DNA of 64,000 bases from a virus (lineage: Duplodnaviria; Caudoviricetes). Location of the stretch: IMG/VR virus record IMGVR_UViG_3300020576_007701. The stretch is one strand, 5' to 3'. The notes under the pieces were generated by a model. It had not been told where the DNA came from. It worked only from the letters and a program-made list of their open reading frames with translations, and made no database searches. Position 1 is the stretch's first letter. Every line of letters starts with the position of its first letter. Made by a program: the position numbers and the translations under genes. This document shows positions 16,982-35,192 of the stretch, piece by piece.

Positions 16982-17066
16982 TTTTGTTTTTGTGCGATAA
17001 TTTACTATTATTAATAAAAAGTAATTATTTTTTCCTGTTATTTATAGATAAATTAATACAAAAAAC

Positions 17067-27449: not shown

Positions 27450-28121
27450 ATGCCAGGAATATATCAAATAAAAAACAAAATTAACAACAATATCTATGTT
27501 GGATCAGCAAAAGATTTCTCACGACGCATAGGTGAACACACAAAATTGTTGAAAAAAAACAAACACCACTCTTCTTATTTACAACATGCTTGGAATAAGT
27601 ATGGAGAAGATAATTTTATTTTTGGATTACTTGAAGTGGTTGAAGATTTGTCTCAATTGATTAAGCGTGAACAGCATTACATAGACACTTTAAATCCTGA
27701 ATATAACATGTGTCCTACAGCTGGCTCTAGGCTTGGGTCTAAAACCACAAAAGAAACAAGAGAAAAAAATCGTCAAAACGCCACCAAATTTTGGCTTGGT
27801 AAAAACCTATCAGAAGAAACTAAGAAGAAGATTGGTGATGCCAACAGAGGTAATCAACACACTCAGGAAGCAAAAGATAAGATCAGCGCAAATCATAGCA
27901 GACATAATCTTGGAAAAAAATTTTCTGAAGAGTCTAAATCAAAAATGGCAAAGGCTAAAGCAATGCCAATCTCACAATACACATTAGATGGTCAATTTAT
28001 TCGCTCCTGGGACTCTGGCAAGCATGTTCAGAATGAAACTGATATGAACCAGGGTAACATAAATAAAGTGTGCCTAGGCAAGTATAAACAAGCTTATGGA
28101 TTTGTTTGGAAGTTTATCTAA
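27450..28121 (+). mobile_element. Free-standing GIY-YIG homing endonuclease with NUMOD3/NUMOD1 DNA-binding repeats
   Basis: PGIYQIKNKINNNIYVGSA, conserved R, E (KREQHYID) and N (EYN); repeats of the SEETKKKIG type; C-terminal QYTLDGQFIRSW...AYGFVW. Confidence 0.9.
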
Positions 28122-28833: not shown

Positions 28834-29391
28834 ATGGAAAATAAAACAAAATATATTTTAGGCTTAGATATTTCAACCAGTTGTATAGGCTACTCTCTTT
28901 TTAATGAAGATGGAAAACTTGAAACTGCAAGCTATGTAAAGTTTGGAGACAAATTAACATTATTTGAAAAACTAGAAGAATTCAAAAAAGCGATTACTTT
29001 TATTAAAGAATATAATGTGGCTTTCATCGCAATTGAGGAGCCTCTTAAAAAATTCATGGGAAAATTTTCATCAGCTACCACAATTGCGTTATTGAATTTT
29101 TTTAACGGAATGGTCAGTTCATATTTGTATTTAGAATTTAAAATTGAGCCAGTTTATTTTAACGTAAACCACGCACGTAAAGAGGCTTTCCCAACTATGA
29201 AGGTTGAAAAAGAGGGTTCCATAAAACATGAGGTGTGGAATAAAGTAAAAGAATTAGAGCCATTAATTGATTGGAAATACGGACCTAAGTCTAGAAAACT
29301 TCTTGACGAAAACTATGATGTTTGCGATAGTTATGTCATAGCATTGTGCATGCTTATCACAATTGACAAACAAAAGACACCAGTTGTCTAG
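28834..29391 (+). CDS. RuvC-like Holliday junction resolvase
   Basis: ILGLDISTSCIG, IAIEEP and YDVCDSYVIA acidic RNase H-fold motifs. Confidence 0.8.
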   Translation: MENKTKYILGLDISTSCIGYSLFNEDGKLETASYVKFGDKLTLFEKLEEFKKAITFIKEYNVAFIAIEEPLKKFMGKFSSATTIALLNFFNGMVSSYLYLEFKIEPVYFNVNHARKEAFPTMKVEKEGSIKHEVWNKVKELEPLIDWKYGPKSRKLLDENYDVCDSYVIALCMLITIDKQKTPVV

Positions 29392-29398
29392 CTTTTTA

Positions 29399-29429
29399 TT
29401 GCTAAGTCAATGATTTTTAGCTATATTTG
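29399..29429 (+). promoter_or_regulatory. Bacteroidota-type housekeeping promoter (TTG-N20-TATATTTG)
   Basis: TTG at 29399-29401 and TATATTTG at 29422-29429, matching the -33/-7 consensus TTG...TAnnTTTG; precedes the primase gene. Confidence 0.7.
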
Positions 29430-29434
29430 CATGT

Positions 29435-30418
29435 ATGTCCAGCGACAAAAACAATCTTTTAATAATCAATATTGTCCAAGGTTTTCTTGGAACACCCAGA
29501 CATTCAAGCGGTGCTGAGTCAAGGTTGCAATGGGAATTTAATTGTCCTTCTCCAAAATGTAGAGGTGATCATAATAAATTTAATTTAGCATATCGCTCTG
29601 ATTCTAAGATATTTAAGTGCTGGAAATGTAAATATAGCGGTTTTGTAACAACTCTTGTTGGTAACCACGGATCAAAAGACGATATAGCCAGGCTAAGGCT
29701 GGTTTTGCCAAAGTATGACCAATCTAGCTTTCAAACTTTTAAACGCCCAGATATTGACTATACGTCTATTGCGTGCGATTTGCCAGTGGGATACATGCCG
29801 TTATCCCAAGAAAGAAAAAGCAAGCTCTGGGAGCGTGCTTGGGAGTACATGACAATAGAACGAAAAGTTAGTCTTCCACAAATTGATAAGTTTAAAATAG
29901 GTTATACAGAAAACGGACCAAGAAAATATAGAATTATAATGCCTTCTTTGAATGCGGCTGGTAGAATTAATTATTATGAAGCAAGAGCTTATTTAAAAGA
30001 TGCCAAGAGACCGTATTGGAAACCAGACTCACCTCATGTGCACGATATAATTTATAATGAATATTATATAAATTGGGATTTGCCGATTTACTTGGTAGAG
30101 GGTGTTTTTGATTCATACAGAATTCAAAATTCTATACCACTACTTGGCAAAACGCCATCTCCTCTTTTGATAAGTAAATTATTAGAGCATAATAGCACTG
30201 TAATAATCTGTCTTGACTCAGATGCGTTTAAAGATAGTGTAGATTTTTACAAAATGCTTTCTTCTCTTGGATTAAATGTTTTTTTTATTGATCTAAAGGG
30301 TGAAAAAGATATTTCAAAAATATATGAAGATCATGGGCAAGAAAGATTAAACGAAATATTAAAGCAGCCAAAAAGAATTGATACTCTTTTTGAAATTAAT
30401 AAAATACTAAACGAATAA
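29435..30418 (+). CDS. DNA primase (Zn-binding + TOPRIM)
   Basis: FNCPSPKC...FKCWKC zinc site; YLVEGVFD and ICLDSDA TOPRIM motifs. Confidence 0.85.
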   Translation: MSSDKNNLLIINIVQGFLGTPRHSSGAESRLQWEFNCPSPKCRGDHNKFNLAYRSDSKIFKCWKCKYSGFVTTLVGNHGSKDDIARLRLVLPKYDQSSFQTFKRPDIDYTSIACDLPVGYMPLSQERKSKLWERAWEYMTIERKVSLPQIDKFKIGYTENGPRKYRIIMPSLNAAGRINYYEARAYLKDAKRPYWKPDSPHVHDIIYNEYYINWDLPIYLVEGVFDSYRIQNSIPLLGKTPSPLLISKLLEHNSTVIICLDSDAFKDSVDFYKMLSSLGLNVFFIDLKGEKDISKIYEDHGQERLNEILKQPKRIDTLFEINKILNE

Positions 30419-30450
30419 AATACGGAGTTAAATGTTTTAAAATATAAAAT

Positions 30451-30753
30451 ATGAAAAGATTAATTAATGCAATAAAAATGGGTTTTTTTACATATAAAAA
30501 TCCAAAAATTTTTCAGCAATATACTTTTAAAATGCTTGCCGATTTATTTGAACTAATTTTAAAGGTATCTCATGAGGATAGGCATATGATGACTCATATT
30601 GCTTTTATTCATCCAGAAGACGGCACCGAACATCAGATAGTATCTATTTGGGCTGGAGCTGGTGCCGCTGCAGAACCAACAAAAAGAATAAAAGAATTAT
30701 TAGAAGAAAACTCTAGGTTAAAAGCATTGTTAAACCAACAAATTAAAAATTAA
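30451..30753 (+). CDS. Hypothetical protein
   Basis: 100-aa ORF. Confidence 0.6.
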   Translation: MKRLINAIKMGFFTYKNPKIFQQYTFKMLADLFELILKVSHEDRHMMTHIAFIHPEDGTEHQIVSIWAGAGAAAEPTKRIKELLEENSRLKALLNQQIKN

Positions 30754-30762
30754 CAACCATTC

Positions 30763-30846
30763 ATGAAAATTGCACATTTAGCGGATATACAATTATTTAT
30801 TTGTGAATGTCAAATATCTATGCTTTTTTATCATATTTATCAATAA
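30763..30846 (+). pseudogene. Orphaned 5' end of the Mre11-Rad50 gene (MKIAHLADIQ plus 17 unrelated codons)
   Basis: The first 10 codons match the start of 31725..35192 (MRICHLADIQ). Confidence 0.75.
30775..30792 (+). repeat. 18-bp direct repeat, copy 1 (CATTTAGCGGATATACAA)
   Basis: Identical to 31737-31754. Confidence 0.95.
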
Positions 30847-30855
30847 AAACAAATT

Positions 30856-31728
30856 ATGATAAAATGTGAAATATGCAAACAAGAGTTTAAACAAATTAGT
30901 AATACCCATTTAATTGAACACAATATAGATAAAAATGAATATAGAAGACTTTTTCCAGAAGCAAAATTGAAAAGTGTTTGGAATTTAGGCTTAAATAAAG
31001 AAAGCGATAAGAGGGTTCTAAAAAACGCCTTGGCGCTTAAAGCTAATCACTGGGTTAAAGACGAAGAAAAAAAGAAAAACATATCTAATAAAATAAGTCT
31101 TAGTAAGACTGGAGGTAAAATAAGTGAGAAAATTAAAGAACAATTCAGGCAAAAATATAAAGGTCAAGGCAATCCAAATTTTGGTAACACATGGTCTGAT
31201 GAACAAAAAAAAGAATCATCTGATAGAATGAAAGAAAAATATAAAGATCCAGAATATGTTGAAAAGTTTAAAAATTCTCATTGGAGTAACAATGAAGAAA
31301 AAAAACAAATAGTCACAAAAAAAGCTTCAGAGTATATAGCAAATGCAATTAGTTTAGGGATAATTAAAATTAATACTGGATATAAATGCGGCTGGATTTA
31401 TTCTGAAAAAATGAAACAAGAATTTTATTACATGTCTTCTTACGAACTTAGAAGAATGATTTTATTAGAAAAATCAGAATTGGTAAAAGAGTATACAAAC
31501 AAACATGGAATAAAATTGCAATACAATAATAAAAAAGGTGGTTTATCTTATTATATACCAGATATTTTAATTACATTTTACAATGGGGATGTACGTTTAG
31601 AAGAGGTAAAGGGCTATGTAAGAGATAAAGATGTTTTTACATTAAAAAATGAAGTTGCAAAATCATATTGTAAAGAAAATAATATAGAGTATAAAATAAT
31701 ATTTAAAAAAGATATAGAAAATTTATGA
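30856..31728 (+). mobile_element. Free-standing endonuclease: Zn-finger + NUMOD3-like + TnsA-like PD-(D/E)XK domain
   Basis: CEIC...HLIEH; GQGNPNFGNTWSDEQKK; YMSSYE...YIPDILI...LEEVKG; own TATTTAT at 30834-30840. Confidence 0.8.
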
Positions 31729-34700
31729 GAATTTGTCATTTAGCGGATATACAAGTAAGATTTGGATCTAGACACGACGAGTACAGAGCTGTGTTTAAAA
31801 GCCTTATTGAAGATCTTGAAAAAGTAAAACCAGACAGAATCGTGGTTGCTGGAGATATTAGCCATCATAAAATAAATATGTCTCCTGGTTCTTTTAATTT
31901 AATTTCAGAACTATTAATAGGTTTATCAAGGGTTGCACCAACTGATGTGATTTTAGGAAACCACGACATGAACTTGCAACAGTTAGAACAAGGTGATGCA
32001 ATCAGCCCAATATTCAATCTTTCAAATTTAATTGAAAAACATGCAGATAAAACAGCTTACATTGTAACCGCTGAAAACAAAGATGCATTAGACTATCAAA
32101 AGAAAGCTATTTATTATTATCCAGATAGCGGGTTTTACAAAATTTCTAAAGATTTTGTATATGGCGTTTATTCGATGAAAGACAACAAAATATTAACGCT
32201 TGAAAAAAAGGAACCTGGCGTTAATTATGTTGCTCTTTTTCACGGTCAAATTTTTGGAGCTAGAGGCGATAATGGCCTTATCATTCATGGAGATACCCAT
32301 TGGAAGCCAACAGTATTTAACAATTTCGACATTGTCATGATGGGAGATATCCACGAATATCAAACATTTCGTGAAGATGAATCAATGGCTTATTGTGGTT
32401 CTCTTGTACAGCAGAACTATGGCGAGGGCGTTGACAAAGGATATCTTCTTTGGAATGTTGAAAACAAAACTCACGAAAGAAAATTTGTGCCAAATGATTT
32501 TGGTTTTGCAAAGATAACAATTGCAAAAGGGGAAAAATTTGAGGAGCGTGTTGAGCACATAAAATTTAGTAGCAATAAAAAGAAAACAAAGGTTTATATT
32601 GTTTGGGAAGATTATGAGGAAAATTTTTCTCAGGAAAAAGAAAATCAAATTGTACGCCTTGTAAAAGATAAGTATGGATGTGAGGTTGTAAAGGTTCAGT
32701 TTGAAGCAATGATAAAAGAAATTGTTGTTGACGAAGAAGAACAACATGGAGAGTTAAAAGAAGTTGAAGAATATTTAAAAGAATTTATAGTTGCTGGAAA
32801 TTATAATTGCACTTCAGATGAACTTGTTGAGTTGTTAAAATTTCACCAAGAAACAACTGTAGAACTTGGGCTTAATGAAATACAATTAGAAAGTGCAAGG
32901 TGGGAATTAAATAAAATTGAAGTGAGCAATATTTTTTCTCTACCAATAACCCCAACAACCATTGATCTTGATTTATTGGGCGGACTTACTGGAATTTTTG
33001 GAAGAAACTACAATGGCAAATCCAATGTTGTAAAAGTTTTGGTGTGGGGTTTATTTAAAGAAATTCTAGGCGGAGATTCTAATTCTGCTAAATATATCGT
33101 TAATATATACACAGATTCAAATAAGGGATATGTAAAACTTTGGATAACAATTGATGGTAAGAAATATTTAATTGAGAGAAGTGTAAGAACCACACAAAAG
33201 AAAGACGGCAGCACATCAAATAGCTACGGTATATCTTATAAAACACTTGAGTTTGAATATGATGAAGAGGGAAACCTTGATAATGAAAAGTGGGAAAATG
33301 AAAAATCCGACTCTGCAACTGCTGAAAAAAACGAAGTTGGAAAACTTATAGAAAAAGCAATTGGAACATTTGATGATTTCACAAAAACATCTTTACAAAC
33401 ACAGGGTGGAAAAGATGATTATTTAAACATGACTCAACAGCCAAAAAATAATTTGGTTAGTAAGTATATGGGTTTAGAAACGTATAAAGATAGATACGAA
33501 TATAGAAATGAAAATTTTAAAGAAATAAAGAAAAAACAAAAAGAGCTTGGAGATAGACCAGCGCTTGAAGATAAAATACACACGCTTCAAATTGAAAGAG
33601 ATGCAAAGAAAAAAAATTACGATGACTGCGTTTCAGAAAAAGAAAAAGCTTTGCAAAGTAAAGAGGGAGTTGATGTTGAAATTCTAAATTTAACTAAAAA
33701 ATTAGAAAAGGTAGAGTTTGTTGAAATAAATGATATTGGAAAAATAACTTATAGTTTAAATCAAAAGGATTTAGATTTAAAAAATAAAACCAAAGAAGCT
33801 TCTGATTTAACAGAATGGTTAGCTAATAATTTTAAAAAAGAATTACCATTTGACAACACGTTATCCGAAGACCAATTAAAATCTCAGCTTTCAGCAGAAC
33901 AATCGGCGTTAACAAGAGAAGAAAACTCTAAAAAAACAGTGTTAGAATGGCTTGCTTTAAATGATGTTAAGACCATTGAGTCTGATGCAACAGTTGAGCA
34001 ATATGCAAAAAGCATAGAGGAAATAACAAAAAAAATATCAACCCTAGAAGGTCAATTATTAACTTTTAAGGGCAAGAGCTGCCCTACTTGTGGAACTATA
34101 CACCAGCAAGCAAATCCACACAAAGAAGAAGAGTGTATTGAGGAAATTAAAATGTGTAAAGAATTATTGGCGCATAAAAGAAAATTAATTAATTCAAATA
34201 ACGAAGCTAAGGAACATAACAATTTACATCAGACAAATATTGATAAACTTAGCAATATCAAACAAAGTCTATTAAACAGATTAGATAAAATTTCTTCTAT
34301 AAAAGAAAAAATAGATTTATTTTCGAGATCTTCAGATATAATAAAACACAACGACTTGGTTGAATCTAACTATAAAAAATTAACAGCTGCAAAAAAAGAA
34401 GTAGATTTTTTTAATAGTGAAATTAAAAAGTTAAACGAGATGCTTGTTAAAATAAAAAACAATGAATCTAAAATAGAAACAAACGCAGGTATCCAACTGC
34501 AAATAGATGATAAAAACGAATTGTCAAGAGCTTATAAGATTACAATTTACAACATGGATAAACAAGCTACAATTTTATTTGGAGAACTTAAAATTGTAGA
34601 AAACAATATAGAAAATTATAAGCAAAAACTTATTGATATAAGCGAGTACGAAAAGGAGTATAGAAAGTATTCAATATATTTGCAAGCAATGCATAGAGAT

Positions 34701-35192
34701 GGAATACCAGCTCTTATTATACGAAAAAAACTACCGCTTATCAACCATAGAATAAATACCATTTTGCAACAAGCAGTAGATTTTCAAATACAACTTTCTA
34801 TACTTGAAAACGGAGATATTGTGGAAACCTTTTATTTTAATGAAGACAAATCAGATACTCTTCCACTTTCTTTTGCTTCTGGCGCTCAAAAATTTGTATC
34901 TACAATAGCTATAAAAGATTCTTTGCATTATATTAGCAGTCTAACAAAGCCATCTCTTTGTATTATTGATGAAGGTTTTGGCACCTTGGATGATGAGCTT
35001 ACCTTTGAAATTATGAATATTTTGAATTATTTAAAGAATAAACATAAGAACGTGATTGTTATAACACACAGAAGTGAAATTAAAGATTTTGCAGATAACA
35101 TTATTGAAGTAACAAAAGTGCAAACTGGCTTAACTCAAGAAATGTTAGATAAAAATCCTAAGGCTGGAATAACAACGCTAAGAATAATATAA
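31725..35192 (+). CDS. Fused Mre11/SbcD nuclease - Rad50/SbcC ATPase (T4 gp47-gp46-like)
   Basis: Phosphoesterase motifs HLADIQ, VAGD, GNHD, LFHG, GDIH; Walker A GRNYNGKS; zinc hook CPTCG within coiled coil; signature ASGAQK; Walker B IIDEGFGTLD; H-loop ITH. Confidence 0.92.
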   Translation: MRICHLADIQVRFGSRHDEYRAVFKSLIEDLEKVKPDRIVVAGDISHHKINMSPGSFNLISELLIGLSRVAPTDVILGNHDMNLQQLEQGDAISPIFNLSNLIEKHADKTAYIVTAENKDALDYQKKAIYYYPDSGFYKISKDFVYGVYSMKDNKILTLEKKEPGVNYVALFHGQIFGARGDNGLIIHGDTHWKPTVFNNFDIVMMGDIHEYQTFREDESMAYCGSLVQQNYGEGVDKGYLLWNVENKTHERKFVPNDFGFAKITIAKGEKFEERVEHIKFSSNKKKTKVYIVWEDYEENFSQEKENQIVRLVKDKYGCEVVKVQFEAMIKEIVVDEEEQHGELKEVEEYLKEFIVAGNYNCTSDELVELLKFHQETTVELGLNEIQLESARWELNKIEVSNIFSLPITPTTIDLDLLGGLTGIFGRNYNGKSNVVKVLVWGLFKEILGGDSNSAKYIVNIYTDSNKGYVKLWITIDGKKYLIERSVRTTQKKDGSTSNSYGISYKTLEFEYDEEGNLDNEKWENEKSDSATAEKNEVGKLIEKAIGTFDDFTKTSLQTQGGKDDYLNMTQQPKNNLVSKYMGLETYKDRYEYRNENFKEIKKKQKELGDRPALEDKIHTLQIERDAKKKNYDDCVSEKEKALQSKEGVDVEILNLTKKLEKVEFVEINDIGKITYSLNQKDLDLKNKTKEASDLTEWLANNFKKELPFDNTLSEDQLKSQLSAEQSALTREENSKKTVLEWLALNDVKTIESDATVEQYAKSIEEITKKISTLEGQLLTFKGKSCPTCGTIHQQANPHKEEECIEEIKMCKELLAHKRKLINSNNEAKEHNNLHQTNIDKLSNIKQSLLNRLDKISSIKEKIDLFSRSSDIIKHNDLVESNYKKLTAAKKEVDFFNSEIKKLNEMLVKIKNNESKIETNAGIQLQIDDKNELSRAYKITIYNMDKQATILFGELKIVENNIENYKQKLIDISEYEKEYRKYSIYLQAMHRDGIPALIIRKKLPLINHRINTILQQAVDFQIQLSILENGDIVETFYFNEDKSDTLPLSFASGAQKFVSTIAIKDSLHYISSLTKPSLCIIDEGFGTLDDELTFEIMNILNYLKNKHKNVIVITHRSEIKDFADNIIEVTKVQTGLTQEMLDKNPKAGITTLRII
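31737..31754 (+). repeat. 18-bp direct repeat, copy 2
   Basis: Identical to 30775-30792. Confidence 0.95.

Follow-up and report, generated by a model that had tools for sequence, protein, structure and literature searches.

The closest published analogues of the element reported here come from two quarters. In fungal mitochondria, mobile endonuclease open reading frames (mORFs) replace the C-terminus of the gene that they enter, as in atp6 of Allomyces macrogynus and in atp6, atp9, cox2 and nad3 of Glomus (PMC3630166). In T4-like phages, the MobA element comprises mobA and the 5' part of gene 60 and comes with a homologous replacement region and a 50-nt bypass (bioRxiv 10.1101/2022.08.31.505936; PMC2988022), and for the homing endonuclease genes (HEGs) of T4, initiation signals of the downstream gene lie within the HEG (PMC2988022). 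Here we describe a locus from an uncultured tailed phage (IMG/VR record IMGVR_UViG_3300020576_007701; 152,940 bp, estimated completeness 52%, with myovirus-type baseplate and helicase genes), in which the gene of a TnsA-like nuclease is found within the first codons of a fused Mre11-Rad50 gene. We analysed a stretch of 64,000 nt from this record, termed the window, and give positions from its first letter. We read the locus, with a probability of roughly 0.8, as a mobile cassette: a free-standing HEG lodged between codons 10 and 11 of the phage Mre11-Rad50 gene.

The features of the locus all lie on the plus strand. Its native left context is a 100-aa open reading frame (ORF) of unknown function (30451..30753; no Pfam or PHROG match), behind which come 30 ATG-led nucleotides, native codons 1–10 of Mre11-Rad50 (MKIAHLADIQ, 30763..30792), that we call the orphan start. 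The inserted unit of 962 bp (30793..31754), delimited by the repeat spacing and by the empty allele of a relative, L007, comprises a leader, the nuclease gene and replacement codons 1–10, and it interrupts the native gene right behind codon 10. The leader (30793..30855, as defined by an alignment of 12 loci) has a promoter-like motif at 30834–30846 and constitutes the non-coding share of the insert. The nuclease gene (30856..31728; 290 aa, PF08722 match) encodes what we interpret as a free-standing homing endonuclease. In a shared ATGA, the nuclease TGA runs into the ATG (31725) of an 1155-aa ORF starting MRICHLADIQVRFG; this ORF is the host gene, the fused Mre11-Rad50 (31725..35192; Metallophos and AAA_23), whose rebuilt codons 1–10 read MRICHLADIQ (31725..31754). 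The two start copies, spaced 962 nt apart, match at 26/30 positions overall and are identical over the 18 bases of codons 5–10. No other exact direct repeat of at least 18 nt has its copies within 3 kb of each other anywhere in the 64-kb window. In first-order Markov simulations the mean number of such repeats was 0.04, and only 4/100 runs had any at all. A sequence-only reading that preceded this analysis had noted the stranded start ahead of the nuclease and the second start overlapping the nuclease TGA, both of which we confirmed on reading the sequence, as well as the identity of the 18 bp encoding HLADIQ, which held in the repeat comparison; its figure of about 60 non-coding nucleotides came to 63 when counted. 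The interpretation offered there is, for the most part, borne out by the comparisons below.

Both the mORFs and the present cassette are free-standing endonuclease ORFs inside a conserved gene, with no intron (PMC3630166). In both, a foreign or re-spelled gene end is read in frame and the native end is stranded as an unexpressed duplicate, and the lateral movement of the mORFs is also how we read the cassette. The phage arrangement is a mirror image, with the 5' end (start codon plus nine codons) replaced, and the cassette must therefore supply translation initiation rather than termination. Its setting is a tailed phage rather than a mitochondrion, its nuclease is a TnsA-like PD-(D/E)XK enzyme rather than LAGLIDADG or GIY-YIG, and its duplicate measures only 30 nt. 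The replacement of a gene end that characterizes the mORFs is found here in mirror image, and the cassette, differing in taxonomic setting and nuclease family, is an analogue of the mORF lineages rather than a member of them.

With MobA the cassette shares the form of a phage free-standing HEG that interrupts the reading frame of a DNA enzyme where a metal-binding motif is encoded. Each gives the downstream part a new start and is seen to exchange the coding stretch containing its own target for a homologous one; each has close relatives that lack the insert, and 'hit and run' derivatives. MobA, unlike the cassette, is an HNH enzyme, splits its host protein into two polypeptides that must reassemble, deletes 55–75 nt from the host ORF and needs ribosomal bypassing. 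In the present case the host protein is unbroken and has lost no sequence; the native piece is left upstream, and translation can proceed in the usual way. Membership in the MobA/gene 60 type of cassette was considered and rejected, the nuclease being PD-(D/E)XK and the host ORF being continuous for 1155 aa from the rebuilt start. Also similar are mobE in nrdA of phage Aeh1 (PMC2988022, PMC3045599) and SegF/SegG of T4, known for intronless homing; all are splicing-independent HEGs beside or in essential DNA-metabolism genes, in which embedded signals for the downstream gene favour retention of the HEG. These, in contrast, sit between genes or give two functional fragments, and none has a duplicate of the interrupted start. 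Our literature search, which was incomplete and does not prove absence, found no published phage case of a HEG that replaces a 5' start.

The sources searched were viral and metagenome contigs and a 5.8-billion-protein collection. The protein collection held 16 members of the nuclease family, and all members whose DNA was fetched sit directly before Mre11-Rad50 with the same 4-nt ATGA overlap; one homologue, P0016, was left out of the locus comparison. Including the window there are 12 occupied loci, the other 11 being independently assembled, from different samples and diverged in sequence. Each genome record carries one copy of the cassette nuclease, always at the same site, and the left junction follows codon 10 in 12/12 loci. 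A remnant of the orphan start was likewise present upstream of every cassette. Its ATG is kept in 9/12 and has been lost, by substitution or small deletion, in L010, L032 and L033.

Seven relatives have an empty allele with a single start. In five of them (L001, L002, L003, L006 and L009) the primase stop is directly followed by one start beginning MKIAH. The remaining two, L007 and L008, are the closest relatives of the window, at 90% amino acid identity in the Mre11 domain and about 80% nucleotide identity; they carry the window's 100-aa upstream ORF and then directly one start, reading MKIAHLADIQVRFG. The L007 allele lacks exactly the 962-bp unit, and its genuine start agrees with the orphan start of the window at 28/30 positions. 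An empty allele of this kind had been predicted in the sequence-only reading, which would have been refuted by nuclease-less relatives with both HLADIQ copies; a motif search of the empty loci found one copy of the start motif in each, not two. The nuclease was not found in the searched parts of the empty-allele records. In the empty alleles the Mre11-Rad50 start directly adjoins the stop of the upstream gene, so the cassette entered an apparent chain of coupled genes.

One further locus, L005, is a deletion derivative. Relative to its occupied relative L011 it is missing ∼930 nt; the orphan start is gone, and the last ∼50 nt of the nuclease ORF remain, joined to the rebuilt start. For the most divergent occupied locus, L036, no empty relatives were found. 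There (L036:1900-2930) the rebuilt start reads MNNFRIAHLADVH and the orphan start reads MKIAHLADIH, as in the other clade. This could mean that the cassette brought the orphan copy with it or, alternatively, that the N-terminus of the rebuilt gene is of foreign origin. In a search for the same nuclease family at other target genes, the more distant relatives L014, L016, L021, L026, L017 and L023 had no duplicated flanks, and blastn of the locus against phage GenBank gave no match. For this one site, occupied, empty, decaying-orphan, probably doubly invaded (see below) and half-deleted alleles are all available.

The left boundary of the element is sharp. In the alignment of the 12 occupied loci, similarity sets in suddenly with the orphan ATG. 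Over the 30 nt preceding it, where the neighbouring genes differ by locus, pairwise identity averages 31%; the orphan start has 77%, the leader 75%, and the third codon positions of the nuclease 59%. From the comparison of 77% with 59%, the orphan copy is not decaying neutrally. It may be under constraint, plausibly as a homology arm, or it may be renewed by repeated invasions of native starts. Stop codons open the cassette in most loci, closing the orphan frame; the first of these is mutated in the window, and the orphan frame therefore continues into cassette sequence as a 27-aa run-on with its stop at 30844–30846.

The two start copies differ systematically, as judged from 11 rebuilt starts and the seven empty alleles. 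At codon 4, all orphan copies and empty alleles have Ala (GCN), whereas rebuilt copies have Cys (TGY) in 9/11 loci. Codon 11 is mostly Val in the orphan copies and empty alleles and Ile in 10/11 rebuilt ones, codon 12 is AGR in the former and CGN in 8/11 of the latter, and at codons 3, 6, 8 and 9 the native spelling is set against several synonymous changes in the rebuilt copies. The orphan copies are closer to the starts of empty alleles than to their own rebuilt start in 9/11 loci. These differences bear out the earlier suggestion that the cassette carries a replacement start. The rebuilt start of the window itself has cassette spelling in codons 2–4 only, and L007-like spelling from codon 5 on. 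This would fit acquisition of the cassette with a crossover immediately behind codon 4, but equally an occupied ancestor, with L007 having lost its cassette by recombination within the 18-nt repeat; gain of the window copy and loss of the L007 copy both appear compatible with the data.

Occupied and empty alleles interleave in the host-gene tree, where the window is sister to the empty L007 with support of 100/99. One sharp conflict between the host and nuclease trees was seen, for L040 and L042, whose hosts are 97% identical and sister (99/96), but whose nucleases are only 75% identical; a joint L040/L042 nuclease clade was rejected by the approximately unbiased (AU) test with a p-AU of 1e-5, the group having been named after the identities were seen. 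The L005 remnant, the decayed orphan starts and this tree conflict are what would be expected from the gain, decay and loss cycle of a homing endonuclease.

The nuclease product begins with a Cys-Cys/His-His finger, contains NUMOD3-like repeats and ends in a TnsA-like PD-(D/E)XK domain, and this combination of finger, repeats and nuclease is the modular build of phage homing endonucleases. Its match to PF08722 (TnsA-like N) scores 29.4 bits, above the gathering cut-off of 26.5, and the best matches in a profile search of PDB sequences were TnsA N-terminal domains (E 0.0018). The AlphaFold (AF2) model has a mean pLDDT of 77, with the C-terminal domain mostly >85, and Foldseek aligned it with TnsA (1t0f/1f1z) at E ∼5e-6 and an rmsd of ∼3 Å over ∼135 columns. 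Seven residues are invariant in 18 homologues, namely C4 and C7 of the finger, E197, P235, D236, E250 and K252, and the catalytic signature E197 / P235-D236 / E250-x-K252 is intact in the nuclease ORF. TnsA of Tn7 (1f1z, 1t0f) and the PD-(D/E)XK class of homing endonucleases have the same fold and the same E / PD / ExK signature as this C-terminal domain; the present nuclease differs in its identity to TnsA of only about 18%, in lacking transposon partners and ends, and in its N-terminal finger and NUMOD3-like modules. NUMOD3 itself was detected in some members of the family. Pairwise dN/dS values of 0.10–0.35 show that the nuclease is under purifying selection. We found no publication on a TnsA_N-type domain as a phage homing endonuclease, in a literature search that was incomplete and leaves absence unproven.

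The N-terminal finger motif is also found in unrelated endonuclease ORFs of other phages. A MIKCEIC-led finger (Cys-Cys...His-His) is common to the ORFs of L043 (G001:C1:72076-72171), L017, L021, L023 and L026, which carry different nuclease domains, and this suggests a shuffled DNA-binding module.

Pfam matches on the 1155-aa host protein are Metallophos at residues 1–212 and AAA_23 at 397–645, which identify it as an Mre11-Rad50 (SbcD-SbcC) fusion, that is, an Mre11 phosphoesterase joined to a Rad50 ABC ATPase with a CxxC hook; SMC_N was recorded on relatives. In T4, Mre11 and Rad50 are two genes. Here they form one polypeptide of 1155 aa with a CPTCG hook, in the window as in all relatives. 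The cassette is lodged at the conserved metal-binding motif I of Mre11. This motif reads D-I-Q, not the usual D-x-H, in the window (31749–31754) and in most relatives, and the junction of the cassette lies directly 3' of the Gln codon. The D-I-Q spelling is found in both empty and occupied alleles, and His is found in L006, L009 and L036.

Expression of the repair gene appears to be bound up with the insert. The ATGA overlap of the nuclease stop and the rebuilt start is conserved in 12/12 occupied loci, and L005 has kept the sequence before ATGA. Both observations would fit a nuclease gene that harbours the initiation signals for Mre11-Rad50, and Mre11-Rad50 may be translationally coupled to the nuclease. 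The promoter-like motif of the leader (30834–30846), remarked on in the sequence-only reading, is conserved in every cassette. It is a 13-nt A/T motif, TATTTATAAATAA, found 11 times in the window when up to one mismatch is allowed, against 2.3 expected (about 5-fold enriched), and its occurrences lie mostly 8–18 nt before ORF starts; plus-strand matches at this threshold are at 17039, 25000, 30834, 43931, 45911, 59669 and 63958. The motif contains the T4-late-like TATAAATA and looks like a candidate phage promoter or initiation element. A scan for sigma-70 promoters did no better than shuffles, and no terminator was found. The leader has no conserved or unusually stable RNA fold. A hairpin sequestering the ribosome-binding site, of the T4 HEG type, is not supported (single-sequence fold z = -0.47, consensus fold -0.5 kcal/mol).

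We propose the following mechanism. The stop codons of the cassette would close the orphaned native 10-codon start, and the repair gene would restart behind the insert at re-spelled codons 1–10, so that no RNA or protein splicing would be needed. In a co-infection, the nuclease would cut the uninterrupted start region of cassette-free phages, and repair would then copy the cassette, pairing through the orphan start on the left and through the gene body on the right. Occupied genomes would be shielded from being cut again by their re-spelled codons (Cys4, Ile11, CGN12 and the synonymous changes); the systematic nature of this re-spelling is indirect support for such immunity. The ATGA overlap would tie Mre11-Rad50 expression to sequence inside the nuclease gene, and L005 may have kept the last ∼50 nt of the nuclease because its expression would depend on such internal sequence. 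The orphan start thus probably acts as the element's left arm in homologous repair. A broader version holds that this arm is a working part rather than debris and that the arm and the re-spelled start together make up a homing unit complete in itself, powered by the TnsA-fold nuclease and able to enter any phage with this Mre11 motif whatever lies upstream, and general for invasion of 5' ends; we advance it tentatively, at slightly less than an even chance.

Several points weigh against mobility. The AU test is weakened by the choice of the L040/L042 clade, which was made with the pairwise identities already in view. In their deep branches the nuclease tree and the host tree largely agree, and much of the distribution could therefore reflect vertical descent; combined with losses by recombination between the 18–30-nt repeats, such descent could also give an allele of the L007 type. 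In a sliding window, identity to L007 is flat at about 80%, with no clear co-conversion tract. Ala4 persists in the rebuilt starts of L011 and L040 and in the L005 remnant, and the proposed immunity therefore cannot depend on Cys4 alone. The contrasts between occupied and empty alleles, moreover, lack phylogenetic independence. Cutting and ongoing mobility are predictions from sequence comparison. A rival reading makes the cassette an old, immobile and vertically inherited insertion, its nuclease kept as a translationally coupled accessory of Mre11-Rad50 and its patchiness due to repeated loss alone. The strict tie to one gene, with the ATGA overlap in 12/12 loci, agrees with this, as do the purifying selection on the nuclease and the deep congruence of the trees, and precise recombination between the repeats would give exactly the L007 allele. 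We nevertheless consider it unlikely. The closest relatives function without the nuclease; the orphan start, although non-coding, surpasses the nuclease third positions in conservation and looks native, which fits fresh invasions; the nuclease and host trees conflict at L040/L042; and finger, NUMOD3-like repeats and nuclease together are the domain set of a homing endonuclease.

Introns that bear endonuclease ORFs frequently break up phage genes at conserved motifs (PMC2988022), and the insert does lie at motif I, but that it should be an intein or a self-splicing intron of group I or II, with the orphan start as exon 1, is highly improbable here. There was no Rfam match at E≤1 over 29000–33500, the 63 non-coding nucleotides of the leader are without a conserved or stable fold, and in-frame stops follow right after codon 10 in most loci. 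Moreover, the orphan ATG is lost in 3/12 loci whereas the downstream gene retains its full start, and L005 functions with its orphan start deleted. The sequence-only reading had likewise argued against an intron or intein, and the empty Rfam search, the in-frame stops and a rebuilt start encoding the complete N-terminus sustain it. The chance that the cassette is a Tn7-like transposable unit, moved by its TnsA-type nuclease and flanked by a 30-nt target-site duplication, also strikes us as very slim. The catalytic domain is indeed TnsA-like by Pfam, profile and fold, and the unit is flanked by direct repeats. Yet no TnsB/TnsC-type gene is adjacent in any locus, there are no terminal inverted repeats above A/T-rich noise, each genome record has one copy, at a single insertion site in 12/12 loci, and the repeat is both imperfect in pattern (native versus re-spelled) and far longer than the 5-bp duplication of Tn7. 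That the genome is a metagenomic assembly could raise the thought of an assembly artefact or of a chance tandem duplication unrelated to the nuclease; this is barely credible, as the same architecture recurs in 11 further assemblies that are independent, stem from different samples and have diverged in sequence, and chance would not be expected to produce an exact 18-mer repeat. An assembly artefact had been named beforehand as grounds for abandoning the sequence-only reading, and the recurrence of the layout in those 11 loci counts in its favour.

The Mre11-Rad50 gene is also interrupted at a second site in some relatives. In L007:4660-5665 (also in L008) and L037:3590-4850 it is split after GDIHEYQTF, around aa 217, by an insert of ∼1 kb. 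These mid-gene inserts carry one or two ORFs and leave separate N- and C-terminal genes with short foreign extensions. L007 and L008 are empty at the start site and L037 is occupied there, and all have the same mid-gene split. The ORF in the L037 insert has weak matches, below threshold, to DUF559/PvuRts1I-like and NUMOD3 domains, and no Rfam intron was found in the mid-gene insert of L007. The mid-gene insert is probably a second, gene-splitting homing endonuclease, in which case L037 would be doubly invaded. Endonuclease genes of yet another type, GIY-YIG with NUMOD3, lie near the primase in the window (27450–28121) and in L010:890-1570(-), L011:853-1740(-) and L038:1-637(-). With such genes near the primase in the window and several relatives, the replication/repair module is a hot spot for several endonuclease families.

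If the broader version of our reading is correct, a TnsA-fold class of nuclease, one that the literature searched does not describe as a phage homing endonuclease, would be used for a generic form of gene invasion at the 5' end. The nuclease is possibly a site-specific enzyme with the TnsA fold and, as such, a candidate for a new scaffold. Short orphan starts before endonuclease genes and odd N-termini, such as that with Cys4, are signatures that gene callers will mis-handle. The series of alleles at one site suits study of the cycle of gain, decay and loss. Insertion near the start together with a replacement start would be a third route into coding sequence, besides introns or inteins and protein splitting, and would mean that gene-end replacement, a strategy so far described at the 3' ends of genes in fungal mitochondria, is used by phages too, and at 5' ends.

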